A stretch of DNA of 64,000 nucleotides, from the NCBI GenBank assembly GCA_018221135.1, contig JAAOYB010000050.1, positions 527-64,526 of the forward strand, in the 5' to 3' direction. The DNA comes from Candidatus Woesearchaeota archaeon. GTDB taxonomy: Archaea > Nanobdellota > Nanobdellia > Woesearchaeales > BM511. Of this stretch, positions 732-56,897 are shown one piece after another (the first letter of the stretch is position 1; each line of letters begins with the position of its first letter). The notes under the pieces were generated by a model. It did no database searches, had not been told where the DNA came from, and saw nothing but the letters and a program-made list of their open reading frames with translations. The position numbers were made by a program, and so were the translations under genes.

Positions 732-2099
732 ATGGTAAAGAAACTGCTAGTCTTTGGGTTAATGTTGATATTATTCTCAACGTTCATCGTCTCTGATTCG
801 CACCTCAACTTAATTGAGAGTTACGAATTTGATTTCGAAGAAGAAAACATTACTTTAACAGTTGATAACACAAACAGTGTTGAAGATGTCACAACAATTA
901 CTTTCTCTTTTAGCGCAATGCCTGGATTATATAATATTAGTAGCGCTTTAGGAGATGTCTCAAATCAAGAAGAAGTACTTTTTGATGATTATCAAAACAG
1001 CTTCGTCGTAGAATACCAAGGCGTTCTACCTGGACAAAACGACTTAGTTGTTAAGATAACAAATGATCAAGGAGCTTTAGTTGCGTTCAAAAAATTTGAT
1101 GTCTTAGTAGAAACTGATATTGAAGTAAGCTATGATAAGCTAAGCGTAATAGTTGATGAAGACAAATTCTACGTTGTTCTTGACATAAACACCAATTTCG
1201 ATTTTAGTACTACAAGCCTTGAAATAATTAGTGGTAACGGCGTAGTGTACCAAAACATTGATTACAGCGTTACAAACGAAGGAAAACACCTATTCACATT
1301 CATGCCTTTAGAGAACTCAAAATACACTATTTTCAGTCTTAGCGTTGATGATTTTGTTCTCGAAGGAAAAACTGAGGAGTTCGGACCTTACGAGTTTGGT
1401 TTAATCACTGGTTTTAGCGAAGAAAAAACAGAAGAAGGCCTAATGATTAGCTTCGTTAATAAATGCGATGATGATTGCTTAGTTGAAGTTTTTGTTTTCA
1501 GCACGTCAAACGAGTACGTGTACAACACGACAAGCTTTGATGGAGACGCAGTCTTAATACCAAGCGAAACCATTACGGCTTCGATGATTAGTGCTCCCTA
1601 CAAAATCGTGTTCGTAACAAGTGAAGACTTAGTTTATGAGTACTTAACTCAAGAATATGACTACGCTAGCTTCGAAGAAGAAATAGTCGAAGAAGTCATC
1701 GTTGAAGAAGTAGTCGATGAACAAACAACCACTAGTAATGGCGGTGGCAGTATCGATGTCAATATCAGCATCGTAGAAGAAACTAATGAGACAACTACTG
1801 AAGAAGTCATCGTTGAAGAAGTAGCTGATGATGAAGTTCTTATTGACATAGAAGAAGTCAACATCACAGAAGACGTAGTGATAAGCCCTGAAGACTTCCA
1901 ACTCGACAAAGACTTAGAAAGTAATAAGACAAGCGTCTTTACTAACCTAGCGACGGGTTTTGCCAATATTAAAATCCCTGGAGTAGGCGGTCTTAGCAAG
2001 GAATTAGCAGGATTATTTGCTTTATTAGTAGTCATAGTCGGCGTCTTAATCTTTGTTTATATCAGGCAACAAAAAAAGTTTTCTATGTACGAAATGTAG
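732..2099 (+). CDS. secreted/cell-surface protein with acidic EEV/VEE repeats and C-terminal transmembrane anchor
   Basis: N-terminal signal-like hydrophobic segment; repeated 'EEVIVEEV' motifs; C-terminal TM 'LAGLFALLVVIVGVLIFVYI' followed by basic RQQKK. Confidence 0.55.
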   Translation: MVKKLLVFGLMLILFSTFIVSDSHLNLIESYEFDFEEENITLTVDNTNSVEDVTTITFSFSAMPGLYNISSALGDVSNQEEVLFDDYQNSFVVEYQGVLPGQNDLVVKITNDQGALVAFKKFDVLVETDIEVSYDKLSVIVDEDKFYVVLDINTNFDFSTTSLEIISGNGVVYQNIDYSVTNEGKHLFTFMPLENSKYTIFSLSVDDFVLEGKTEEFGPYEFGLITGFSEEKTEEGLMISFVNKCDDDCLVEVFVFSTSNEYVYNTTSFDGDAVLIPSETITASMISAPYKIVFVTSEDLVYEYLTQEYDYASFEEEIVEEVIVEEVVDEQTTTSNGGGSIDVNISIVEETNETTTEEVIVEEVADDEVLIDIEEVNITEDVVISPEDFQLDKDLESNKTSVFTNLATGFANIKIPGVGGLSKELAGLFALLVVIVGVLIFVYIRQQKKFSMYEM

Positions 2100-14296: not shown

Positions 14297-15826
14297 TTGT
14301 TTTTATCGAGGAAAAAGTTTATAAAGGCAAAAACACATATTTTTCTCTTAATGCCTGCTAGTAAAAAAAAAGAGGAATTATTTAAAGAACTAAGCTACAA
14401 AGGCTACCACCCGAAAGGAGAAGCTCCTGATGAGGAATTATGGGAGTTTCAAAGCCTCGTAGACGCAGGACCCTCAGGGTACCCTCAACCAATCAGGCAC
14501 TACGAGCTTCTCATTGAGAGACAAGGGGAGAACTTAGAGAGCGCTTATTACTTCTTATATCAACTAATCGGCGTCGATATAGGTCATAGAATAGAAAAAA
14601 TAATTGATACTTACGCTGCGAGTCAAGCTTCTTCCCAATTCGGAAACCTCCAAGCAAGGCTTAGCATGCAGCAAGGCCAGATAAGCCAATACTTAAAAGG
14701 CATCAGCGACATGGTAAAAGGATTGTTTCAGCTTGTTCGAGAACTTCGAATAATCGAGGAGAGATTGCAGTTTTACTTTGACACCTACGATGATGAGAGC
14801 GGAAACAAAGACTCAAGCGAAATCGTCCTAAAAGGCTTGTGGGTTGACCAAGTAGAAGGAGGAGCCAAGAATCCCTCGAGCGTGTATGGATTAGCAGCTA
14901 ATGTCGGCTTTACAATACTGCCTGACTTATTTTTTAGGATAAGAGTAAAAAACGCTAAGCGCATAGACGAAAGAGTTGATGAGTTAAAGTTCAACGAGAA
15001 AGTAAAAGAGATCCTTAAAAGAAAACTAAGACAATACCATGAGTGGAAAAAAAGAACTTTTAGCGAGTTAAAAACAAGAAAGCAATTCTTAATAAAATAT
15101 TTGCGTCAACATTACGAATCAATACAACTCTATATTAGTTGGATAAAACCATATCTTAGAAACGTCAAAAACTTACAAATGGCTAAGAAGTTAGAGAGTA
15201 ACAACGAACTCATCAGTAGTTTTGAGAGTAACATCTCAGAAATAGAATTCTTAGGAATAAAAAAAGGGAAAGGGGGTTATAACAGCGTAGCTGTTGTTAA
15301 CATGCTCCACAGAAGCCGCCCCGAACTTAATTATCACGCTCAAGAATACCAAAACAAAGGCCCCACCCACACAGGTAAGCTACGACTCAACATCCGGGGT
15401 TATGCTTGGACTGATAAACAAATCGAGGATTACAAAGAATACAAGCTTAACGAAGACTTAGAATTATTAAGCACTGTTGATGAAAGCATCCAAGCAGCTA
15501 TGGACGCACTTGGAGACGACTTAAAAAAGTATTTGAAAACAAAAGGAGAAGAAATAGACAAACCCATTACTTCTAAGAAGAAAAAAGTTAGGCAGCCAGG
15601 AGCAGCGGATCCTTTCCTTAGCGTGTTTAAGGGCTTCGCCGAGCTTGGGAGAAGTTTTTTCCCCGCCAAACCAAAAAGTGATGGGAGCGGTGAGAAGAAA
15701 CCAACCAAAAAGGATGTGTGGCAGAGTAAAAAAGACATTGTTGGTTCTGTTAAGACCGCTGAGGTAGTGACTTGGCTCGCGTTTAAGAATTTCAAAAAAG
15801 GCAATGGCATGCTTACGTGGTGGTAA
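14297..15826 (+). CDS. large hypothetical protein with no recognisable domain (start uncertain; TTG at 14297 or ATG at 14351)
   Basis: Long ORF 4 nt after copA stop and 3 nt before next ORF; real amino-acid composition; no motifs recognised. Confidence 0.45.
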   Translation: MFLSRKKFIKAKTHIFLLMPASKKKEELFKELSYKGYHPKGEAPDEELWEFQSLVDAGPSGYPQPIRHYELLIERQGENLESAYYFLYQLIGVDIGHRIEKIIDTYAASQASSQFGNLQARLSMQQGQISQYLKGISDMVKGLFQLVRELRIIEERLQFYFDTYDDESGNKDSSEIVLKGLWVDQVEGGAKNPSSVYGLAANVGFTILPDLFFRIRVKNAKRIDERVDELKFNEKVKEILKRKLRQYHEWKKRTFSELKTRKQFLIKYLRQHYESIQLYISWIKPYLRNVKNLQMAKKLESNNELISSFESNISEIEFLGIKKGKGGYNSVAVVNMLHRSRPELNYHAQEYQNKGPTHTGKLRLNIRGYAWTDKQIEDYKEYKLNEDLELLSTVDESIQAAMDALGDDLKKYLKTKGEEIDKPITSKKKKVRQPGAADPFLSVFKGFAELGRSFFPAKPKSDGSGEKKPTKKDVWQSKKDIVGSVKTAEVVTWLAFKNFKKGNGMLTWW

Positions 15827-15829
15827 GAA

Positions 15830-17761
15830 ATGGCTGGTGAATATCATAGCGTTATGGACAAAGAATTCGCGCCTAACATCCAAGAAATAGGCGCTAGTAC
15901 TAATCCTTTCCAACACCAAACCGAAGCTCTAAAAGCAAGGATTTTTCATGGTGCTAACAAAGTCGAATTTTCTTTTTTTGGACAAGGAAAAACCAATAAG
16001 GAACAACCCGGCCCCGAAACGTTTGGAAGTCGTGAGAGAGAAGACATGAAAGCCATGGCTGAGTTTAACAAAGTCCAAACCAGCACTCACGCAACAGTTG
16101 GTATTAATGGTCTTAGCGGTTTTAATTTCCAAAACAACAGTTTTAGCAGCGAACAACAACAACAAAGCCTGGACGAATTAAAAAAAGCCATTGATTTCGC
16201 CTCAGAAGCAAGCACTGGCGGAGCCGTTGTTTTCCACACAGGCGAAGGCCCCAGAAGTATGTGGAGTACGTTTAACAAAGAATTCCAACTTCATGACAAA
16301 GAAGAAAAAGAAGAAGTACATTACTTAGTTGACAAAGACGACAAAAGAATTATCGGCGCTGTTAAAGAAGACGCGTACATCTTTGAGCCCCAACAAAAAA
16401 TCGGTAAAGACGGCGATAAAGAGTGGGTTACAAAAACTGATGGGACTTGCGAAATAGACGAATTAACCGGAGGGAAAATCCCTGTTTATGAACAGACAAA
16501 ACAAGGAGACATCGATGTTAAAAAAATAACTTTTAAGGAATGGCGTCAAAGAGAAGAAGAAAAAATGGGAAAAAGTGGTTTGAATCCTCACACTTTTGAT
16601 AATAGAAAGAAGATAACCAAAGATTTTTTTAAGGAACAACAAGAAGCCCAGATCCAGTATCAACTAGGGCAATCCAGGATTTATATTGATCATTATAAAA
16701 AGGGTTTAAAGCAAAGAGAGAAACTAAAAGAAGCCCTAGAGCATTACAAGAAAATGAAAGGTGCTATGAGCGATGAAGACTGGAAGAATAAACATACAAT
16801 GTGGGACCCTGAGACTAGGAGTTTTGAGGGCTTAACACTACCTGACTACACAGATCCTATCAAACACCTAGAAAACAAGATAAAAGATAATGTTAGAGAG
16901 ATAGGGTACGGGCGAGAAATCGCTCTTGGGGGTATCAGAGCTGCAAAAGAAGCTTATGAAAAAGTAAAAAACGCTGAGTTCATAGAAGAATTCGCTCTTG
17001 AACAAGCAAGTAATCAAATGGCGGAAGCCGCGGTTTACGCCCATGAAAAAACCAAGCAAAGAATAGCTAAAGGAGACACGTCCTTAGAGAAGAACCCTTT
17101 GTTTATAAGCCCTGAAGGTTGGAGACCAGAAGATTTCGGAAGCCACCCTGAGGAGCTCAGAAAACTAATAAATAATGCAAGGAAGAAAACCAGTGATACT
17201 TTAGTCAAACAAAAAGGGTACTCAGAGACTAAAGCTGAAAAAGTAGCAGAGCAAAGTATTAAAGCAACCATCGATATAGGTCACATGAATACTTGGCGCA
17301 AGTTCTTTGTAAAAAAAAGCGGTGAGAGCGACGAAGCGTATCATAAGCGTTTTGATAATTGGCTTATTAGAGAAACTGATAAATTAGCTAAAGAAGGCCT
17401 CATCGGTCACGTTCACCTAAGCGATAACTACGGATATAACGATGAACACTTAGCTATCGGTGATGGTAACGCTCCGATTAAGGATTTCATGGCTGTTATG
17501 AGAAAAAACGGAGTTGACGATTTCATAGTTGAAGCAGGCAGTTTTAACCCTATGAGCGCGCTTCCCGATGCTTGGGAGCATTTGGGAAGCCCTGTTTACA
17601 GGGTCGGAACCCCAACCGCTGGGACACCAGGGGATAGTTGGGGTTATTTTCATCAAGGTTACTTCGGAGGAACTGAAGGTCCTCGCTTCGTCGTTGGCGA
17701 TTACTCTCCAAGCGATGATTATAAGGGTTCACCATTTTATACCGGGACTCCTTTAGAGTAA
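15830..17761 (+). CDS. xylose-isomerase-like TIM-barrel (AP-endonuclease-2 fold) protein with ~300-aa charged K/E-rich insertion
   Basis: 'AIDFASEASTGGAVVFHTGE' and C-terminal 'GHVHLSDNYGYNDEHLAIGDGNAPIKDFMAVMRKNGVDDFIVEAG' match the XI-like barrel signature; central coiled-coil-like insert. Confidence 0.5.
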   Translation: MAGEYHSVMDKEFAPNIQEIGASTNPFQHQTEALKARIFHGANKVEFSFFGQGKTNKEQPGPETFGSREREDMKAMAEFNKVQTSTHATVGINGLSGFNFQNNSFSSEQQQQSLDELKKAIDFASEASTGGAVVFHTGEGPRSMWSTFNKEFQLHDKEEKEEVHYLVDKDDKRIIGAVKEDAYIFEPQQKIGKDGDKEWVTKTDGTCEIDELTGGKIPVYEQTKQGDIDVKKITFKEWRQREEEKMGKSGLNPHTFDNRKKITKDFFKEQQEAQIQYQLGQSRIYIDHYKKGLKQREKLKEALEHYKKMKGAMSDEDWKNKHTMWDPETRSFEGLTLPDYTDPIKHLENKIKDNVREIGYGREIALGGIRAAKEAYEKVKNAEFIEEFALEQASNQMAEAAVYAHEKTKQRIAKGDTSLEKNPLFISPEGWRPEDFGSHPEELRKLINNARKKTSDTLVKQKGYSETKAEKVAEQSIKATIDIGHMNTWRKFFVKKSGESDEAYHKRFDNWLIRETDKLAKEGLIGHVHLSDNYGYNDEHLAIGDGNAPIKDFMAVMRKNGVDDFIVEAGSFNPMSALPDAWEHLGSPVYRVGTPTAGTPGDSWGYFHQGYFGGTEGPRFVVGDYSPSDDYKGSPFYTGTPLE

Positions 17762-22440: not shown

Positions 22441-23796
22441 TTAGTAGTGTTCTTTTTTGTTGTTAATTGCGTTTAAGAGCATTAGTACTCCACCGATTAA
22501 CACGATGTTTGCCAGTACTAATACCAGGATTATCTCTAGTCCTTCACCACTAAAAAGACTTGTTTTTTGGCTTTTTTGCGTTGCGAAAACCGCGCCTGTT
22601 GGAATACTAGGAGTACTTATTGGTGTATCAATGATTATAGTTGAGGAATCATCATCGTCACCAGTTGTTGGTGGCGTGCTTGACTTGCAACTAATAACTT
22701 CAAGAGTTACGATGTCAGTGTCGCTCTTATCACTTGTGCTGCCACTGTAGTATGAGTTTACGTTGAATAAGTAGTTTCCTTCTGGGATGTCCTCAGGAAC
22801 GCTTAGTCTGAAACTTACTCTTTTGGTGTCTGATTCATCGATTACTATGTTTCTTAAGTACTCAGTTATTTCCCAGTCAGGATCGTCTGCTTTGATTAAT
22901 ACCATTGCTTCTTCTAAATCCCTGCTACCACTGTTTTTTATCTCTACGTTAAGAGTTGTTCTCCTATCACAACTGATAACACTTGGGGTGAAGCTTAGTT
23001 CTCTTATTAGTACTTCTCTTGATTTGACTTCTACGTCGATGTCGAATGTGAATGTGTATTCGTGGTATGTTCCTTCATCATCGTATCCGAACACCATGAT
23101 TTCTACTTCTTCTCTTCCTTCATCTTGGTCTTCTTCGATTATAAAAGTTAATTCTACTTTTTCGTCTTCTCCACTGTCAACGTCTACTTCGTCGTCTTCG
23201 TCAGCGTCTAAGCCATCGCTTGTCACTACTACTTCGATGTCTTCGATGTCGATGTTTGAGCTTCTTGAAAACTTGTTTTCTACTTCGATTTCGAGAGTTA
23301 CGCTATCTCCTCTTTTTGCTTCTATTCTCTCTCCTTCTTTTACGTCTTCTGTGTCTCCTTCTACGTCGATGTTAACATCTGATATTTGTAGTCTTGACTC
23401 GATAACTAAGTTCACATCGCTGCTTGCTTGTACTGCGCTGCTTGTTGAGTTCTCACCAGATACTATGATTTCTCCTATTTTGTGACTGTCAAAATTTGTT
23501 GATTCGCTTGTTGGGATTGTTATTTGGAATCTGTAAGTAGCTGTTTCGCTTGGGTCAAGTTCTGTGTCACTCAAGTCAGTTATGGTTGTAAAATCAAAGT
23601 CTGAGAATCCTGTTGTGGTAACATCCAGGTTGCTAATAGTATCGCTTCCTGTGTTTGTTATCGTAATCGTTGCGCTTAGTGTGTCCTTTATCATTCCTTC
23701 TAGGTTTGTTTGAGTCACGCTTAAGCTGCTGGCTGTTGCGCTTATACTTAGAATTATTAAGATTAGTAGTGTTGTTATGATTTTTGTTGTTTTCAT
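22441..23796 (-). CDS. secreted acidic cell-surface protein with C-terminal TM anchor
   Basis: Signal peptide 'LLILIILSISATASS'; D/E-rich repeats; C-terminal TM 'ILVLVLANIVLIGGVLMLL' followed by a short basic tail. Confidence 0.55.
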   Translation of the reverse strand: MKTTKIITTLLILIILSISATASSLSVTQTNLEGMIKDTLSATITITNTGSDTISNLDVTTTGFSDFDFTTITDLSDTELDPSETATYRFQITIPTSESTNFDSHKIGEIIVSGENSTSSAVQASSDVNLVIESRLQISDVNIDVEGDTEDVKEGERIEAKRGDSVTLEIEVENKFSRSSNIDIEDIEVVVTSDGLDADEDDEVDVDSGEDEKVELTFIIEEDQDEGREEVEIMVFGYDDEGTYHEYTFTFDIDVEVKSREVLIRELSFTPSVISCDRRTTLNVEIKNSGSRDLEEAMVLIKADDPDWEITEYLRNIVIDESDTKRVSFRLSVPEDIPEGNYLFNVNSYYSGSTSDKSDTDIVTLEVISCKSSTPPTTGDDDDSSTIIIDTPISTPSIPTGAVFATQKSQKTSLFSGEGLEIILVLVLANIVLIGGVLMLLNAINNKKEHY

Positions 23797-28677: not shown

Positions 28678-30108
28678 TCATCCCTTAATAACACCTAAGG
28701 GTCGTACTCTTGCGACTAGTTCTGCGATTCCTGCTTTATCACTGACTCTTACTACTTCGTCAATATCTTTGTACGCGCCGGGTGCTTCTTCAACAATTCC
28801 TTTCTTGCTTGCGCTTCGAATCAAGATATTATTTTTTTCTAACTCGCTAATGACTTGTTCAGAACTATATTTTTTCATGGCAGCGAATCGTCCCATGCTT
28901 CTACCAGCTCCGTGAGCAGTGCTGCCAAAGCTTAGTTCCATAGCTTTCTCTGCGCCTTTAAGTAAGTAACTAGCCGTTCCCATACTCCCAGGCAAAATAA
29001 CTGGTTGACCAACTCCTACATAGTTTTTTGGTAATTCCGTTCTTCCTGGAGGAAAAGCTCTAGTAGCTCCTTTTCTATGAACAATAAGTTCTTTTTCTAC
29101 GCCGTCAACAATGTGTTTTTCTAGTTTTGCAATGTTGTGCGCTACGTCGTAGATAGTTCTTAACTCAGTTTTTTCTCCGAAGACTTCTTTGAAGCCTTGT
29201 CTTACGAAATGCGCGATTACGTGACGATTAGCCCACGCGTAGTTCGCGCTTCCAATCATCGCGCTATAATAATCCTGACCTAATCTTGAGTTAAACGGGG
29301 CGTATATCAAGTCTTTTTCAGGAAGGGACTCTATTATTTTTGGGTATTCATCTTCGAATTTCCTGATGTAATCACTGCAAACCTGGTGACCCAAACCTCG
29401 ACTACCACAATGTATCATGATTACTACTTGGCCTTTTTTGTTAATACCAAATGTTTTAGCTGTTTCTTCGTCGTATATCTCGTCTACTACTTGTACTTCA
29501 AGAAAATGGTTTCCTGCGCCGAGAGTTCCTAGTTGACGCCTCCCCCTACCTTTTGCTTTCATACTAACAGTTTTTGGATCACAACCCTTCATAGAGCCTT
29601 CTTCTTCGGCGTGGGTGACGTCTTCTTGTGTTCCGTATCCTTTCTTCGCTGCGAACTTACTCCCATTAACTAATACGTCGTCGAGTTCATCATCTGTTAA
29701 TCTTATTTTTGATTCGCTACCAACCCCACAAGGAACTAACTCGAATAATTTATCAAGTAATATTTTCATCTTCGGCGTGACTTCTTCCTTATTTAGGTTG
29801 GTTGCTAGCATCCTAACACCGCAGTTAATATCAAATCCTATACCTCCCGGCGTTATTATACCCTTTTCTTTGTCGAACGCGGCGACGCCTCCTATTGGAA
29901 ATCCATATCCTTTGTGCGCGTCGCTCATCATGAAACTTGCTTTTTGAATTCCCTCAAAACTACTTGCTACGTTTATTCCTTGCTGCAACGCTCCGTCATC
30001 CTCGATGGCTTTTATTAGTTTGTCACTAGCAAAGATTTTCACGGGTACTTTCATATTCCCCGTTTTGGGGATTTCGTACAAGTAATCATTAATTTTCTTG
30101 GCTTTCAT
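28678..30108 (-). CDS. rtcB: RNA-splicing ligase RtcB
   Basis: 476 aa; characteristic RtcB motifs 'GAGNHF', 'HCGSRGLG', 'TAHGAGR'. Confidence 0.93.
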   Translation of the reverse strand: MKAKKINDYLYEIPKTGNMKVPVKIFASDKLIKAIEDDGALQQGINVASSFEGIQKASFMMSDAHKGYGFPIGGVAAFDKEKGIITPGGIGFDINCGVRMLATNLNKEEVTPKMKILLDKLFELVPCGVGSESKIRLTDDELDDVLVNGSKFAAKKGYGTQEDVTHAEEEGSMKGCDPKTVSMKAKGRGRRQLGTLGAGNHFLEVQVVDEIYDEETAKTFGINKKGQVVIMIHCGSRGLGHQVCSDYIRKFEDEYPKIIESLPEKDLIYAPFNSRLGQDYYSAMIGSANYAWANRHVIAHFVRQGFKEVFGEKTELRTIYDVAHNIAKLEKHIVDGVEKELIVHRKGATRAFPPGRTELPKNYVGVGQPVILPGSMGTASYLLKGAEKAMELSFGSTAHGAGRSMGRFAAMKKYSSEQVISELEKNNILIRSASKKGIVEEAPGAYKDIDEVVRVSDKAGIAELVARVRPLGVIKG

Positions 30109-30515
30109 AAGTCCATCACCATGACTACATAGTTCTTTGTGTATTCAAAATCGTTGTACGTAACTGCTTTTATGTGACCTCTAATCTCGTACCCTTGATA
30201 TTTGTCGCCTGTCACCGTTGCTTTTAAGGTGTTTTCTTCTATAACTACCTTCTTTACTTTTGCAAGTACGAAACCTTCAACGTCATGCAAATAGAGTAAT
30301 TCATCTAAGAAGTCATATAGTAACCCCCTAAGATTTTTTGCTTTGATCTCTAATGTGTGCATCTCGACTTCTCGTATCTTCTCTGTGTTTATCACGATGT
30401 TAAACATTGCCAGAGCAGCGTTCTCAAATCTTTCCTCGTCGGTTTTCCCATATGCTTTGAACTTCGCATCAGCTGTGTGCTCCAAGTACTCAAAACGCTT
30501 TTTTTTCCTCACCAT
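30105..30515 (-). CDS. archease (RtcB cofactor)
   Basis: 'YLEHTADAKF' archease signature; 4-nt overlap with rtcB start. Confidence 0.85.
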   Translation of the reverse strand: MVRKKKRFEYLEHTADAKFKAYGKTDEERFENAALAMFNIVINTEKIREVEMHTLEIKAKNLRGLLYDFLDELLYLHDVEGFVLAKVKKVVIEENTLKATVTGDKYQGYEIRGHIKAVTYNDFEYTKNYVVMVMDL

Positions 30516-44702: not shown

Positions 44703-45626
44703 ATGGGACTAACTAGTAATCTTTCTCTGCAAAGAAAAGCACAAACTAAGAAGTACGCGGTGGGGGCTTTTAACATAAGTAACATCGAAATCTTACAAAG
44801 CGTATTAAGCGTTGCGACCAGACTTAAGAGCCCTGTAATTATAAGCACGACGCCAAGCGCGATAAGCTACGCAGGACTACAAAACATTTCTTGTGTCGTG
44901 AGAAACGAAGCGAAGAAAAGCGGTGTTCCTGTTAGTCTTCACTTAGACCATGGGAAAAGCTTTGATGATGTTAAGATGTGTGTAGACGCGGGTTATAGTA
45001 GTGTCATGATCGACGCGTCTGATAAGAGTTTTCTGCAAAACATTAAGTTAACAAAAAAAGTTGTGAGTCTTGCTCATAAAAAAGGTGTTAGTGTCGAGTC
45101 AGAACTAGGAGTTCTTTGCGGCGTAGAAGACAACGTGAACGCCTCAGAGAATGTTTGCACAGTCCCAGCGCAAGCAAAGGAATTCGTAGAGCGAACAGGG
45201 ACAGACACCTTAGCTGTCGCGATTGGTACTAGTCACGGCGCTTATAAGTTCAAAGCGACTCCTAAGCTTCGTTTTGATATCTTAAAAGAGATAAGAAGCC
45301 TCGTTAAAACACCATTAGTTCTTCACGGAGCCAGCGGGGTACCAAGCAACCTATTAACAAAACTCAAAAGTGTGGGTGTTGGGCTTGGCAAAGCCAAGGG
45401 CGTACCAGATGCACAGATAAGAAAAGCCATTTTGGAAGGCGTCACTAAGGTTAACATCGACACAGATATTAGATTAGCGTTTACTTATGGTGTTAAGAAG
45501 TTTTTAGGTGATAACAAAAAAGTTTTTGATCCAAGAAAGATTCTTGGAAACGCAAAAAAAGAAATGGAGAAGATAGTAGAACAAAAAATGTTGCTTTTTG
45601 GTTCGAAAAACCAAGCAACAAACTAA
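44703..45626 (+). CDS. fba: class II (metal-dependent) fructose/tagatose-bisphosphate aldolase
   Basis: 'YAVGAFN', 'HLDHG', 'SVMIDAS', 'GTSHGAYK', 'LVLHGASG' motifs. Confidence 0.85.
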   Translation: MGLTSNLSLQRKAQTKKYAVGAFNISNIEILQSVLSVATRLKSPVIISTTPSAISYAGLQNISCVVRNEAKKSGVPVSLHLDHGKSFDDVKMCVDAGYSSVMIDASDKSFLQNIKLTKKVVSLAHKKGVSVESELGVLCGVEDNVNASENVCTVPAQAKEFVERTGTDTLAVAIGTSHGAYKFKATPKLRFDILKEIRSLVKTPLVLHGASGVPSNLLTKLKSVGVGLGKAKGVPDAQIRKAILEGVTKVNIDTDIRLAFTYGVKKFLGDNKKVFDPRKILGNAKKEMEKIVEQKMLLFGSKNQATN

Positions 45627-45657
45627 AAATGTTTATGTGGTTGGGAGGAATAATTTT

Positions 45658-47649
45658 ATGAGTCACACTTTACTTTTTTCAAATATCGACGAAGAGAACA
45701 GGGCTTTTGTTGGGGAGAAAGCGTATAATCTTAGCCTTGCTAAAAAATACGTCGAGGTCCCTAACGGATTTGTCATCACCTCTGAGGCTATGAAGTATTT
45801 CTTAGAGCATAATAATTTGGTTGAGACGATAAAGACCTATCTTGATAGTTTGATGAGTGAGAACGAGAACATAATGGCGGTTGTTAACGCTGTTCAAAAA
45901 AGTGTTATCCAAGCAAAAATCCCTGATGATTTGGGTGATGAGATAAGAGAATTATATGAAGGCTTAGCTTATGATAAGGAGGACAGCCCTGAGAATTTAT
46001 TAAAGCCTAAAGAGGGAGAAGAAGTCTTGGTTTGCGCTCGTCACGGTGATTGGAGTGAGCAAAACGACAATGTTTATTTGCTTAACGTTCGAGGTGAGAG
46101 TAAGCTTTTCGATGCTGTTAAGGTGTTGTTTGCTAGTAATTTTATTAGTACTAAAATAATTAATAGTAAGAAAGAAGGCTTGGATGTTTTCAAAAACGCT
46201 GCTCAGCCAGTCATAATTCAAAAAATGATTAATGTTCATAGAAGTGGTGTTAGTAGTAGTTTTAACATCAAGAACAATAAGATGCATCAAGTAACCATCG
46301 CTGCTCATTTTGGTCTTGGAATCGCAAAAGATGATGAGAAACTGGGTTTTGATGAGTACGTTCTTAACGAAGACTTTGACATCTTAGACTCTAAGGTTGG
46401 TGAGCAAGCGTACGCTTATGAAAAAGATTTGGATAGCGACGCCACTGTCAAGTATGATTTAAAGGATAATAGTAAAAAAGAAAAAATCAGTGCGTCTCAT
46501 GCTAATATGATTGGGAGAACCACTAAGAAACTCGCTAGGATTCTTGAATCCGCCGTTGTTTTGGAATGGGGGTTCTACAAAAATTTTTTGTACATCTTTG
46601 ATGTTAAGCCAGTAATTGTAGAAGAGGATTCTGATCAGCAAAGAATAGATGAATACGAGGAAGAAGTAGAAAGTAGTACTCAAGAAGAAGGTGTGTTAAG
46701 AGAAGAAGAATCTGAAACGTTTGAGAGACGCGACGAGGAAGAAGTAGGAGTAGTTGATGAGAGCATCACTGTTAGTGACTACCAAGATAGCGACCTTGAT
46801 GAGGACTTGGAGATTCTTAGAGACTTAGAAAAAGAAAACCTTGTCTATGATGATGAAACCAGCAAGAAACCAGCAGCAGCAGAAAAAGGTAGTTTTTTTG
46901 ATGTTGATTCATTTGTTGGCACAGAAGACGAAAACGAAACAGAAACCACACAAGAAGAAAATGTTAAAAATGATGAGGGTTTTGCTTATGACTTCTTAGA
47001 AGGAGACCTCCCTGATGATAGGATAACTGTTGTTGACGAAGAAGAAAGTTCTGAAGAATTAGGACAAGACGAAGACAAAGGCGACGATGACGATGAAGGA
47101 GACGCTGATTTGCTTGTTGATGGCGATGATAATTTTTTTGAGAGCGCTTCTGAAAAAATAATTGAGAAAGACGCCCAAGAAGAAGAGGGAGTGAAGGGTG
47201 ACGATGACGTTTTTCTTAGTGGTTTAGAAGTAGAAGACGATGGAGACTTTATTTTTTCAAAAGAAGAAGAAAGTGGAGGAGAAAATGTAGAAGAATCTTC
47301 GTTTCTTGATGAAAGCGTAAGCCCTGTTGATACGGATTTACTAAAAAAAAGTGAAGAAGAAGAAAATGATTTTATTAGTTTAGGCGAAGAAGAAAGTATT
47401 AGCGAGTTTGACAACCGGATTTTTAGTGCTCTAAGAAGCAAGTACTCCGAATTATTTGAGAGGAGCCCTCCTAGTGACTTTGCTTATTTGTTAGAAGAAT
47501 TAAAAACAAGAATCCGGGTTCCTTTTGAAGAAGATATTAAGAGGGTTTATGAGATAAAGCAAAGCTACGACTCCGACTCGGATAGTGTTAATCTTTCGGA
47601 CTTAGAGTTTTCTAGAGACACAACTAGTAGGTTCTTAGAAGAATTCTAA
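45658..47649 (+). CDS. PEP-synthase/PPDK N-terminal (ATP-grasp nucleotide-binding) domain protein with ~350-aa hyper-acidic C-terminal tail
   Basis: 'FVGEKAYNLSL...GFVITSEAM' and 'VCARHGDWSEQNDNVYLLNVRGE...VIIQKMINVHRSGV' match PPDK_N; no phosphohistidine or PEP-utilising domains; tail >40% D/E; ATG 45658 with GGAGG RBS preferred. Confidence 0.6.
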   Translation: MSHTLLFSNIDEENRAFVGEKAYNLSLAKKYVEVPNGFVITSEAMKYFLEHNNLVETIKTYLDSLMSENENIMAVVNAVQKSVIQAKIPDDLGDEIRELYEGLAYDKEDSPENLLKPKEGEEVLVCARHGDWSEQNDNVYLLNVRGESKLFDAVKVLFASNFISTKIINSKKEGLDVFKNAAQPVIIQKMINVHRSGVSSSFNIKNNKMHQVTIAAHFGLGIAKDDEKLGFDEYVLNEDFDILDSKVGEQAYAYEKDLDSDATVKYDLKDNSKKEKISASHANMIGRTTKKLARILESAVVLEWGFYKNFLYIFDVKPVIVEEDSDQQRIDEYEEEVESSTQEEGVLREEESETFERRDEEEVGVVDESITVSDYQDSDLDEDLEILRDLEKENLVYDDETSKKPAAAEKGSFFDVDSFVGTEDENETETTQEENVKNDEGFAYDFLEGDLPDDRITVVDEEESSEELGQDEDKGDDDDEGDADLLVDGDDNFFESASEKIIEKDAQEEEGVKGDDDVFLSGLEVEDDGDFIFSKEEESGGENVEESSFLDESVSPVDTDLLKKSEEEENDFISLGEEESISEFDNRIFSALRSKYSELFERSPPSDFAYLLEELKTRIRVPFEEDIKRVYEIKQSYDSDSDSVNLSDLEFSRDTTSRFLEEF

Positions 47650-52522: not shown

Positions 52523-52594
52523 TTATGATATCACTCTATCTTAAAAGTTTATAAAAACCTATTTTTTGAAGGGATAATGTTTTATTTAAATAGT

Positions 52595-52996
52595 TTATGG
52601 TTTCCAATAGTACAGTTTTATGACGCCATCATCTAAGCTATTTGTTATGTTGCCTGTGATATACACGCTGTCCAAAAAAACTGTTTTCTTAGGTAAGCTT
52701 GGTCGTTCCCTGTTGCAAATAACAAAATCGTAATCCTCAAGTAAAGGCTTTGTGAGATTAACTAGGAGGGTGTTATTAGTTTTGTACTCACAATTATCAA
52801 CTAATGTAAAGATGTTGTTTCTAAACTCATCATCACCTAATAATTTTATTAGTGTCTGCTTGTTTTCTTCGTTCTTATTTGTGAGTTGAGGATTATAAGT
52901 ACTAGCTAAGAAACTAAAAGTTATGATCACAGCGATTAATGCTTCTAAACTCCTAAGATACGCAACTTTATTCATTTTCCTCATTTTTTTTACCAT
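52595..52996 (-). CDS. small pilin-like protein (possible class III/type IV prepilin signal)
   Basis: Basic N-terminus then hydrophobic 'LEALIAVIITFSFLA'; NxT/S sequons; 7-nt overlap with upstream pilin-like gene. Confidence 0.4.
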   Translation of the reverse strand: MVKKMRKMNKVAYLRSLEALIAVIITFSFLASTYNPQLTNKNEENKQTLIKLLGDDEFRNNIFTLVDNCEYKTNNTLLVNLTKPLLEDYDFVICNRERPSLPKKTVFLDSVYITGNITNSLDDGVIKLYYWKP

Positions 52997-54255
52997 ACCG
53001 TGACGTGAAGAGTCATCCTTTCTTGGTTTAAGTATTTGTCTTGTACTTTTACTATTTCATCTTTTGAATAAACAATTGTGTTCGGGTCGTAATAATATCC
53101 ACCTATACTAAGAAGCGTGTTATTTCTTCTTGTCTGCGTGTCTTTAATCGTGGTGTTATACAACCTTATCGCAAAGTTCTCATTGACGTTTGCAGAAGTT
53201 TTAATGCTTTGTTCTGTTAAGTTCCCCGCTCCTAATAGCATTATTTCATACTTAGTAATAGGGACTCCGAAAACCGTTTCGTATTCGGAGATGGTTTGAT
53301 TGGAAAAAATTGTTTGGTATTGCATGTTTTGGTTAATAAAAGTAAAACTAAGAAGTGCTTCGTAGTCTTCATAACAAATATTGATATCTACTTCTTTGTT
53401 AAAAACTATGCTCATAGACTCATTGTTCTCGTCGCTTAACATTATTTCTTTGTTATTGCTAACAACACATTTTTGTTGTGAGACATCTAATGAGTCGTAG
53501 TTGTCGTTGTCTATAAAGTAATCCGTGAAGCCCACCGCTTCGAAACTTATCGTCATGTTATGATTGTTTTGCGCGTCGTTTCTCTTGATTTTCGTCTTGT
53601 AATTATCACTTTCTAACACTATCTTAGTAGTAGAGGTAAAAGGTTGGAATTCTTCTACTAAATCTAAGAATACGTCTTTGTTAACACTCTCAAAGTTAAG
53701 ATTGCCGAGTTGTTCGCCTTCTTGAAAATACGCGAAATCTTTTATTCTTAGAACTTCACCGTAATAAACTTCGTCTATGGTATTACCATATTTTATTAGG
53801 AGTTTTGAATTAGGATTAACTATGTTATTCTCTTCGATTATTCCAAGAGCATTAGTATTGTTAGAAGGGTATGTTTGGTCTGATGAGACTAAGTAATAAA
53901 TCTTTGCGCCGCTTACTAAGTCGTCTAGTACGTAGAGTGTTTCGTCTAGGATTACGTATGGCTTACTAGTTTTTAAATACGTTTTTTCTCCTTCTAAAAA
54001 AGATATGTTTACCTCTAATAATTGTTTGTTCATTGATTGATTGCTAAAAACAAAGAAAGGTGTTGTTATTACTTCTTGGCTTAGTTCTTCTACTAATGAC
54101 GCTCTTATCTTCTCATACGATGGCACTAAGAGATTTGGCTCGATAATACTTGGTTTTACGTACATAAAAAACCATGCTAAGTACAATAAGAATATTGCTA
54201 GACTAACAGCCCAATCTACTTGTGAGAAGCCCCTCTTTTTTTTAAGCATGAACAA
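52990..54255 (-). CDS. large type IV pilin-like protein with class III signal peptide
   Basis: 'KKKRG|FSQVDWAVSLAIFLLYLAWFF' prepilin-peptidase-type site; many N-glycosylation sequons. Confidence 0.5.
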   Translation of the reverse strand: MFMLKKKRGFSQVDWAVSLAIFLLYLAWFFMYVKPSIIEPNLLVPSYEKIRASLVEELSQEVITTPFFVFSNQSMNKQLLEVNISFLEGEKTYLKTSKPYVILDETLYVLDDLVSGAKIYYLVSSDQTYPSNNTNALGIIEENNIVNPNSKLLIKYGNTIDEVYYGEVLRIKDFAYFQEGEQLGNLNFESVNKDVFLDLVEEFQPFTSTTKIVLESDNYKTKIKRNDAQNNHNMTISFEAVGFTDYFIDNDNYDSLDVSQQKCVVSNNKEIMLSDENNESMSIVFNKEVDINICYEDYEALLSFTFINQNMQYQTIFSNQTISEYETVFGVPITKYEIMLLGAGNLTEQSIKTSANVNENFAIRLYNTTIKDTQTRRNNTLLSIGGYYYDPNTIVYSKDEIVKVQDKYLNQERMTLHVTVW

Positions 54256-54285
54256 ACATGGTTTTTGGGGTATTAAAAGTTTTTG

Positions 54286-55802: not shown

Positions 55803-56897
55803 CTATTTTTTAATCTTTTTTATTTGTTCAAAAACGTCTTCGACTTCGTCATCGCTTATCTTGTCGAGTTTCTCAAAAATCTGCTTTTTTTGTGCTACTC
55901 CGCTTCTTTGCTCCTCAAGATTTTTTCTAAGCTGATTTTTTAATTCTCGTCTTTTATGAAGGTAATCCAGGACTTCTTTTCTTGTTTTCCTCTCTTGGAG
56001 AACACTTAATTCTTCTCCTTTTACCTCCTTGTCAAAGTAGTCAAAGAAATCTTTTACTTCGTTCTCCCTTTTTTGTTGGCCGAGTTTTCGAAGAAGTGAC
56101 TCCGGGCTCCCTCTTGTTTCTTTTGCATAGAACGGGATGTTTTTCTTAGAACTTTTTTCTTCTTCCTTTACTTTTTGTTCTTGTGCCACCTTTTGTTCTT
56201 CTTCTATTTTTTCTTGGGTTTTCTTTTTGAATTTGCTGTTTGGGCCAAGCAAAGAAAAATAAGCTTTTTCAAATATGCTTATCGTGTTTTGATAAGTTTT
56301 TTCTAAGAACTGGTTTATTTTGTTCAAGTCAACCCCTTTTAGGTTTATCTTAAAACCGACTTTTTTTTGTGGTGTTTTTATTTCTTCTTGCATGAGTTCT
56401 TCTTTTTCTTGTTCTTGATTTTGCATGATTTCTTGTTTCTTTTTTGTTTCTTGCATTATTTCCTTGTCTTTTTTTCTGCTAACCAAGAAATACACGAATA
56501 AGAGAACTGCTAATAAGACGCTAAGAACAGGTATTAAGATGTTTATAGAAGTCTGAAAATTAATCGGGCTATACTTATTATTTGGGTTTGTCCCAAGCTC
56601 GTTTTCTTTTTTATCATTGTATCCGTCCCCATCACTGTCTGGATTGGTCGGGTTTGTGCCAAGAGTTGCTTCTTGAAGGTCTAATAAGCCATCATTATCA
56701 GTATCGAGTTGGGAATTGCTAAGTTGGGGGTTGAGACCGTTTTCTTTTTCGTATTCGTCGCTTAATCCGTCGTTGTCAAAGTCGTATTTATACTTGTCTT
56801 TCTCATCTGGTATCCCATCACGATCACTATCTAAACCTAGTGCTACACTTGAGAACAAAAATACTAATATTAGTAATATGCCGACCTCTTTTTTCAT
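55803..56897 (-). CDS. membrane protein with extracellular thrombospondin-type-3-like Ca-binding repeats and cytoplasmic K/E-rich coiled coil
   Basis: Signal peptide; repeated 'D.D.DG..D' ('DSDRDGIPD', 'DFDNDGLSD', 'DTDNDGLLD', 'DSDGDGYND'); single TM; charged tail. Confidence 0.5.

Follow-up and report, generated by a model that had tools for sequence, protein, structure and literature searches.

In the 64,000-nucleotide (nt) stretch of contig JAAOYB010000050.1 from a Candidatus Woesearchaeota archaeon (GCA_018221135.1), referred to below as the window, two overlapping genes on the minus strand encode a large and a small protein, each with a pilin-like N-terminus. On balance, we favour the view that the two are translationally coupled minor or accessory pilin-like subunits of a DPANN type IV pilus, that the large one is a modular subunit and probably a tip adhesin, and that the pair has become detached from the pilus operon in this genome. 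Alignments indicate that class III (prepilin-type) N-termini are conserved in both protein families, and the gene context of orthologues supports a tie of both families to type IV pili. The two open reading frames (ORFs) described in a first-pass annotation of the sequence (52990..54255 and 52595..52996, minus strand, with a 7-nt overlap) are seen as reported. The genes and their N-terminal features, with lengths in amino acids (aa) and helices partly taken from AlphaFold2 (AF2) models, are as follows.

52990..54249, minus strand: large gene, 419 aa from the ATG at 54249; NCBI GOV05_05065 (identical protein)
52595..52996, minus strand: small gene, 133 aa from its ATG; member of the partner family
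52990..52996, minus strand: gene junction ATGGTAA, a 7-nt overlap of large-gene stop and small-gene start
54229..54249, minus strand: basic leader MLKKKRG of the large protein, ending in a putative prepilin-peptidase site with R at -2 and G at -1
54160..54228, minus strand: hydrophobic N-terminal helix FSQVDWAVSLAIFLLYLAWFFMYV of the large protein, residues 8-30, from the alignment and an AF2 helix at 7-30
52898..52996, minus strand: leader MVKKMRKMNKVA and helix YLRSLEALIAVIITFSFLAS of the small protein, with putative cleavage between A12 and Y13 and an AF2 helix at 5-33

The hydrophobic helix SLxIFLLYLAWFF is the most conserved stretch of the large family, a pilin-like pattern given that the ectodomain reaches an identity of about 20-25% only. 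It follows the motif K[KR][GA]/xSQxDW, in which the slash marks the presumed cleavage point. Among 187 sequences, position -1 is occupied by G (142) or A (29), position -2 by R (97) or K (68; R or K together in 165), and position -3 by K (169) or R (12; together 181), while +2 is mostly S or T and +3 mostly Q or H. D at +5 and W at +6 are found in all 187, so that the site RG/FSQVDW with its hydrophobic helix, as already recognised in the first-pass annotation, is conserved far beyond chance. In the alignment, D12, W13, S16 and F20 are invariant, and W26, F27 and F28 nearly so; the invariant D12-W13 of the window protein lies at nt 54211-54216.

The small family carries a motif of its own, KK[GA]/[YF]x[RK]TxE. 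Of 67 sequences, 34 have G, 32 have A and one has S at -1; 52 have K at -2, or 56 when R is counted as well, and 55 have Y or F at +1. An alignment of 47 sequences shows E at +6 throughout and T at +4 in at least 90%. The basic and hydrophobic N-terminus noted before for the small protein thus belongs to a conserved family motif, of which the window sequence NKVA/YLRSLEAL is an atypical form; its invariant E18 is encoded at nt 52943-52945. Basic leader, small residue at -1 and hydrophobic helix, i.e. class III-like features, are hence present in both families. A prepilin-peptidase site needs such a small residue, whereas a plain signal-anchor does not. That the small residue is fixed behind basic residues in two unrelated families is the main argument from sequence for class III processing, in which both proteins would be cleaved by a prepilin peptidase.

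The link to pili comes from relatives, whose analysed loci are numbered L001 and onwards. At nine genome loci, a shorter member of the large family (238-295 aa) occurs with the small gene, and in most of them this short-form pair directly follows a pilus operon; the exceptions are L078, which is cut just upstream, and L080, in which the small gene was not detected. The operon runs from three or four pilin genes (150-190 aa) via another pilin-like gene, an ATPase gene and two platform genes to the large and finally the small gene. Pfam assigned the relatives' ATPase to T2SSE (E 2e-32) and both platform genes to T2SSF, while the operon pilins show RG/ISPLIATVL N-termini with a weak match to Pilin_N. 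Pilin-like genes of the [KR]G type number three to seven across the sampled relatives, and no ArlH-like gene occurs in the related pilus operons. The layout agrees with what has been described for DPANN loci with two platform genes and downstream accessory genes, namely system 1 / subsystem 4A (bioRxiv 10.64898/2026.04.22.720090), and several minor pilins are expected in such loci (PMC4858521).

The same arrangement recurs beyond these nine loci. All four small-family matches on long contigs, among them a complete genome (CP066683.1, 736,802 bp), lie at the same pilus operon. A metagenome scan seeded with the second platform gene gave 47 operons with enough downstream sequence; in 38 of these the small gene is found at most four genes downstream of that platform gene, with a recognisable large-family gene just before it in 31 of the 38. 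In 21 of these 38 operons, no more than 1.2 kb separate its start from the second platform gene, while an extra gene intervenes in the others. That about seven of the 47 operons have neither gene downstream is to be expected if the pair is encoded elsewhere in some genomes, as it is in the window.

These operons also bear on the proposal of the first-pass annotation that the pair represents a major plus a minor pilin, the 419-aa and the 133-aa protein jointly building a filament. Both proteins have class III-like N-termini, and the window contains no further class III-like ORF besides the pair. The separate multi-copy pilins of 150-190 aa in the related operons, with their RG/ISPLIATVL N-termini, are much better candidates for major pilins, however, whereas the pair occurs once per locus and at the operon end, has no pilin-family match, and comprises an ectodomain of about 360 residues, far above that of any known major pilin. 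Joint construction of a shaft is therefore very improbable. What stands of the earlier proposal is a role in adhesion or a filament: a function at the surface is plausible, and the operon context provides the pilus link.

Since the ectodomain of the large protein is this bulky, the protein could be accommodated at the tip or the base of a filament only. The globular parts of both proteins were modelled as follows.

52993..54081, minus strand: ectodomain of the large protein, residues 57-419, beta-rich, with the Cys pair C261/C292, nine sequons and W419
52598..52897, minus strand: ectodomain of the small protein, two helices on a four-stranded sheet, with a conserved C-terminal LYYW

The AF2 model of the large protein (38-sequence alignment; mean predicted local distance difference test score, pLDDT, 87.7; predicted template modelling score 0.77) shows a helix at 7-30, a Pro-rich break of low confidence, a second helix at 42-56, and a nearly all-beta ectodomain. 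Structure prediction of this C-terminal domain, which the first-pass annotation had proposed, confidently yields a two-sheet, galactose-mutarotase-like beta-supersandwich. In the ectodomain, P64, G328 and W419 are invariant, and C261 and C292 nearly so. No catalytic His, Glu or Asp is conserved, and a role as epimerase or glycosidase is thus unlikely. The fold class alone suggests that the domain may bind glycans. For the small protein (pLDDT 83.8, 71 sequences), a long N-terminal helix, two more helices and the four-stranded sheet were predicted.

N-glycosylation sequons, with which the large protein had been described as packed, number nine in the large and three in the small protein. The densities of about 21-23 per 1000 aa are indeed the two highest in the window (median 4.3), but against shuffled sequences of the same Asn-rich composition the counts are not significantly raised (p about 0.09 and 0.23).

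The large protein of the window is a long form. Short forms match the long-form profile at about residues 1-100 and 300-421 only (boundaries were taken from local domain coordinates, as a global hmmalign run mis-placed the short-form C-termini), and hence the window protein has some 150-200 extra central residues; its residues from about 125 to 300 have no short-form counterpart. This centre is flanked by the conserved N-terminal part and by a C-terminal part of about 100 residues with an invariant final Trp. At L107 (10945-12459), a 504-aa large protein with a non-homologous centre is encoded inside the pilus operon, so that the central part acts like a variable cassette. When the small proteins were placed in a neighbour-joining tree, the eight partners of short forms grouped in one clade, as would fit one split at the time when operon linkage was lost. 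One family locus was recovered per genome record, and with this clean separation in the tree, the long form looks like an orthologue of the operon component and not like a new paralogue. A more far-reaching interpretation would see in the long-form large subunit a new type of archaeal modular pilin, in which a pilin helix and a C-terminal core frame a swappable glycan-binding cassette that sets the host or surface, and in which the pair has become independent of the operon; we offer this as a speculative extension that is rather unlikely to hold in full.

The locus of the pair repeatedly appears to have acquired adhesin-type modules, as judged from three relatives. At L011 (5419-9096), a gene for a 1225-aa right-handed beta-helix protein (NosD/Beta_helix) lies between the large and the small gene. 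At L013 (7359-10405), the large gene is split, and a 640-aa protein with TSP3, immunoglobulin (Ig)-like and CBM-like parts carries the C-terminal strands of the large family. At L069 (3961-6726), the small-family N-terminus is fused into a 921-aa CARDB/PKD/DUF285 protein. Such gains favour an exposed, tip-type role over a basal one.

They also have to be weighed against an alternative in which both proteins remain uncleaved and form a membrane-anchored base complex, acting as a stator, in alignment or in envelope anchoring, like ArlF/ArlG or PilN/PilO, with the supersandwich bound to the cell's own glycosylated surface layer (S-layer). The position right after the platform genes with one copy of each gene, the bitopic architecture of both proteins (transmembrane helix, helices and globular domain), and a bulky domain that is ill-suited to a filament shaft would all agree with a basal location; a carbohydrate-binding-type fold could bind S-layer glycans, and the archaellum stator itself derives from a filament-subunit duplication (bioRxiv 10.64898/2026.04.22.720090). 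Yet the G or A conserved behind basic residues in both families suits a peptidase site and not a simple anchor, no fold match to ArlF/ArlG, PilN/PilO or GspL/M was obtained, and the fusions and insertions of adhesin modules in sister loci are better suited to an exposed tip. Furthermore, the long form has moved away from the operon, where one would expect a part of the machinery to remain. To our knowledge, ArlF/ArlG have no prepilin-type cleavage site. Taken together, a base complex seems unlikely, though it deserves to be kept in mind.

Several observations weigh against the assignment of the pair to a pilus. The small protein of the window has V at -2 (K-V-A/Y), the sole such case in its family. 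Q at +3 in the large and Y or F at +1 in the small family might fail the strict FlaFind pattern. No curated pilin family (Pilin_N PF07790, Class_III_signal PF04021, archaeal flagellin PF01917) reached threshold, no solved pilin, archaellin, minor-pilin or ArlF/G structure was among the fold matches of the large ectodomain, the small protein had no significant structural neighbour, and no ligand-binding residues are conserved in the large ectodomain. Moreover, the long-form loci lie amid housekeeping genes (TatD, UMP-kinase-like, archease, RtcB, aIF5A), and pilus machinery or a major-pilin candidate is absent within 10 kb on either side of all of the approximately 68 long-form loci. The window itself contains no pilus ATPase, platform protein, prepilin peptidase or major-pilin candidate in its 64 kb; as the first-pass annotation had stated for ATPase and PilC, hidden Markov models (HMMs) of the relatives' T2SSE and T2SSF genes gave zero matches, and reading of the ORFs revealed none. 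A motif scan of 82 sequences (the window and L001-L081) found no Peptidase_A24/PibD-like ORF. An apparent ATPase match in L046 proved to be an ABC transporter.

This isolation of the long form could suggest a surface module that works without a pilus, similar to the bindosome of Sulfolobus sugar-binding proteins, in which the N-terminus would serve export and anchoring only and the pair would act as a stand-alone complex for glycan binding or cell contact. That the long-form pair is never near pilus genes, sits in housekeeping surroundings with its own promoter-like element, and has a galactose-mutarotase-like fold would be in line with this idea. The N-terminal helix, where contact with the machinery would be expected, is still the most conserved part in long forms, however, and the long form looks orthologous to the operon component, with one locus per record and a clean tree split; in addition, the bindosome itself needs a dedicated ATPase and platform, and conserved binding-site residues are lacking. 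We consider such a module quite unlikely.

For minor or accessory pilin-like subunits, the following course of events can be envisaged. The pair would be transcribed from its own promoter, with the ATGGTAA overlap coupling translation, and each protein would be inserted into the membrane with the short basic leader inside and the large domain outside. A PibD-type prepilin peptidase could then cut behind the conserved G or A, and the N-terminal helices with their acidic residue (D+5 in the large, E+6 in the small protein) may attach to the PilC-like platform or to helices of pilins. A few copies of the pair might become part of the pilus, most likely at its distal tip, where the 40-kDa supersandwich domain of the large subunit could contact glycans on a partner cell or a surface. 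In this lineage, the pair would have left the pilus operon, and the large subunit would have gained about 150-200 central residues. The analysis shows the genes with their pairing and overlap, the conserved class III-like motifs, the operons of relatives, the predicted folds and the absence of conserved catalytic residues, whereas incorporation into the pilus, the position at its tip, and binding of glycans or a host are inferred.

A TTG at 54255 is an alternative start of the large gene (ORF 52990..54255, 421 aa), but the true start is probably the ATG at 54249, from which the protein begins MLKKKRGFSQVDW, because this agrees with the NCBI call and with family N-termini; in the large family, the N-terminal Met stands three to eight residues ahead of the conserved G. 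NCBI (GOV05_05060) lets the small gene begin at M8 (nt 52975), seven codons later, which gives a 126-aa protein starting with MNKVAY. The overlapping ATG appears to be the better start, since overlap and junction are conserved in the family: 36 of the 69 homologous large/small pairs show a gap of -7 nt, with junctions ATGGTAA, ATGGTAG or ATGGTGA (consensus NTGGT(A/G)(A/G)). The ATGGTAA overlap implies translational coupling of the two genes. Two flanking elements were read by eye.

54271..54279, minus strand: TATA-box-like CTTTTAATA, about 26 nt upstream of the large ATG
52553..52557, minus strand: oligo-T run 3' of the small gene

A distance of about 26 nt between TATA box and ATG is as expected for leaderless archaeal mRNA, and the spacing thus suggests that CTTTTAATA is a putative promoter of a leaderless transcript of both genes. 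The oligo-T run is a possible archaeal terminator ahead of the aIF5A promoter.

By all searches made, the two families appear restricted to DPANN archaea (Woesearchaeota/Nanoarchaeota) and unannotated. An exhaustive search of cluster representatives found 136 members of the large family at E<=1e-3, mostly of 400-430 aa, while a word-indexed homology search with the large protein returned only itself. A pattern scan with one genome per species located the family in 93 species-level genomes, nearly all labelled Woesearchaeota, Nanoarchaeota or Nanoarchaeia, with one Aenigmatarchaeota and a few TPA bins termed 'Methanosarcinales'. These records of an 'uncultured Methanosarcinales archaeon' that carry the pair (L005, L014, L018, L019, L034 and other TPA 'binchicken'/SRP bins) are probably mislabelled, given that the pair is otherwise specific to Woesearchaeota/Nanoarchaeota. 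A profile search for the small family yielded 159 homologues, all 'hypothetical'. With these, the large and the small family comprise at least 136 and 159 cluster representatives. At 69 of 78 loci, the large-family gene is followed on its own strand directly by a small-family gene. The closest pair, on a Logan contig, shares 36% (large) and 50% (small) identity with the window proteins in other surroundings, which indicates that the pair is the conserved unit and not the genes around it.

Pfam and NCBIfam scans of both proteins together with 38 large-family and 47 small-family members gave nothing above threshold. Below threshold, the N-terminus of the large protein matched DUF7287 (residues 5-38 against profile positions 2-34, E 0.0025), as did two of the 38 large-family members, while the small family produced no Pfam or NCBIfam match, not even a sub-threshold one. 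A PDB sequence search with the large-family profile returned nothing meaningful, and a literature search on DUF7287-7289 and on pili in Woesearchaeota found nothing specific. A paralogous relationship of the large and the small protein was considered and dismissed (hhalign probability 10.7%, no homology beyond the N-terminal helix).

In the window, the neighbours of the pair are housekeeping genes, i.e. those for a UMP-kinase-like protein, TatD, Nop56/58, aIF5A, a site-2 protease and a SpoU methylase, next to a small zinc-ribbon protein that is possibly ribosomal protein L40e, by eye alone. Archease follows the pair, directly in many relatives, in 40 loci plus L084 (L084:10460-10870), with short as well as long forms. 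The window has its archease (30105-30515) and RtcB (28678-30108) genes adjacent to each other on the minus strand, about 22 kb from the pair. In long-form loci, a family of small acidic proteins of about 118 aa (MKITIDTKEDSHEEIR) without Pfam match often separates the small gene from archease; it occurs at L006 (8089-8445) and 27 other long-form loci and is absent from the window. In the operon-linked loci L070 (8573-10195), L074, L077, L084 and L085, genes for OapA (a GTPase), OapB and OapC follow the pilus operon and the pair; as Oap genes are origin-associated, these pilus loci may lie near the replication origin. Some pilus ATPase ORFs appear very long (1134-2123 aa; L073:2958-6425, L081:1051-4455 and L107), with Gln/Pro-rich N-terminal extensions. 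The 2123-aa ORF of L107 directly precedes the platform genes there. Because ORF calling was mechanical and always took the first possible start, some of the added length may be artefactual.

Further candidate surface proteins are encoded in the window. A 451-aa protein similar to CARDB/NPCBM-associated surface proteins (22441-23796, minus strand) weakly matched the relatives' pilin HMM (E 4.7e-6) and was discarded as a pilin, being a CARDB-like surface protein with a Sec signal and not of class III. Probable surface proteins are also a 455-aa protein without Pfam match (732-2099, plus strand) and a 364-aa protein with bacterial TSP3 repeats (55803-56897, minus strand), whose gene lies three genes upstream of the large gene, with the TatD and UMP-kinase-like genes in between. 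All three have Sec-type signals and C-terminal or internal anchors. Elsewhere on the plus strand, a 683-aa protein (45598-47649) combines a PPDK_N domain (pyruvate phosphate dikinase, ATP-binding) with an acidic low-complexity tail of about 330 residues, and two adjacent large genes (14297-17761) encode a 509-aa protein without real Pfam match and a 643-aa protein with a xylose-isomerase-like TIM barrel in its C-terminal part only. ARAGORN detected no tRNA in the 64 kb, although intron-containing or split DPANN tRNAs can escape it, and no Rfam family reached its gathering threshold, which makes the window a long stretch with no recognised RNA gene.

Physical contact with a host cell is a necessity for many DPANN archaea, and little is known about the molecules that mediate it. 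The large subunit would be a concrete candidate for a determinant of attachment or specificity, in view of its variable cassette and of the beta-helix, Ig-like, PKD and leucine-rich repeat (LRR) modules gained by related loci. The motifs and alignments could seed family models and thereby put an end to the 'hypothetical' labels; if the pair turns out to be a routine minor-pilin set, the gain would lie mainly in annotation. The kind of system is an expected one, and its key steps, i.e. cleavage, incorporation into the filament and the ligand, are inferred.

Among known systems, archaeal minor pilins such as Epd of Methanococcus maripaludis share with the pair a basic leader, G or A at -1 and a hydrophobic helix. 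EppA substrates have an acidic residue within a QxSxE motif, and the pair is likewise acidic near +5, but within the motifs xSQxDW and [YF]x[RK]TxE. Unlike these minor pilins, the pair lacks a sequence-family match, its window copy is detached from the operon, and the large subunit is far bigger. A second parallel is offered by UpsA/UpsB and AapA/AapB of Sulfolobus, in which two pilin genes stand immediately downstream of the ATPase and platform genes, in a gene order like that of the pair. Both Ups and Aap pilins are small proteins that form the shaft of the filament, whereas the operons of the pair hold several further pilins and its members are of unequal size (about 420 or 250 versus about 130 aa). 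In their genomic setting, with one ATPase, two platform genes and downstream accessory genes, the orthologues of the pair also resemble archaeal minor pilins of clade 1/system 1 and subsystem 4A loci (PMC4858521; bioRxiv 10.64898/2026.04.22.720090).

Bacterial modular minor pilins consist of a pilin-type N-terminal module with a grafted bulky module of the adhesion or lectin type that fits at the tip only (PMC8179133). Streptococcus sanguinis PilB/PilC, GspK, and PilY1 with its minor pilins resemble the pair in this concept, in the presence of partner minor pilins, and, through relatives of the pair, in variable central cassettes and adhesin fusions. Homology is absent, however, and the pair is of the archaeal class III type with a supersandwich instead of a vWA or lectin domain. 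ArlF/ArlG (FlaF/FlaG) are likewise two monotopic proteins with filament-subunit-like helices and beta-rich ectodomains, encoded beside ATPase and platform genes; the pair differs from them in its location outside an archaellum locus, its conserved cleavage-type motif, and the lack of a fold or sequence match. DUF7287, a haloarchaeal family whose function is not known, shows a weak likeness to the N-terminus of the large protein under the gathering threshold. Galactose mutarotase-like domains (aldose 1-epimerase, the C-terminal part of GH38, LacZ domain 5 and YidC P1) share 5-10% identity with the large ectodomain, which departs from them in having no conserved His, Glu or Asp and in being joined to a pilin-like helix. 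Compared with all of these systems, the novelty lies in the two DPANN families, neither of them annotated before, in the union of a pilin-type helix with a supersandwich module, and in a pair that is no longer linked to its operon.

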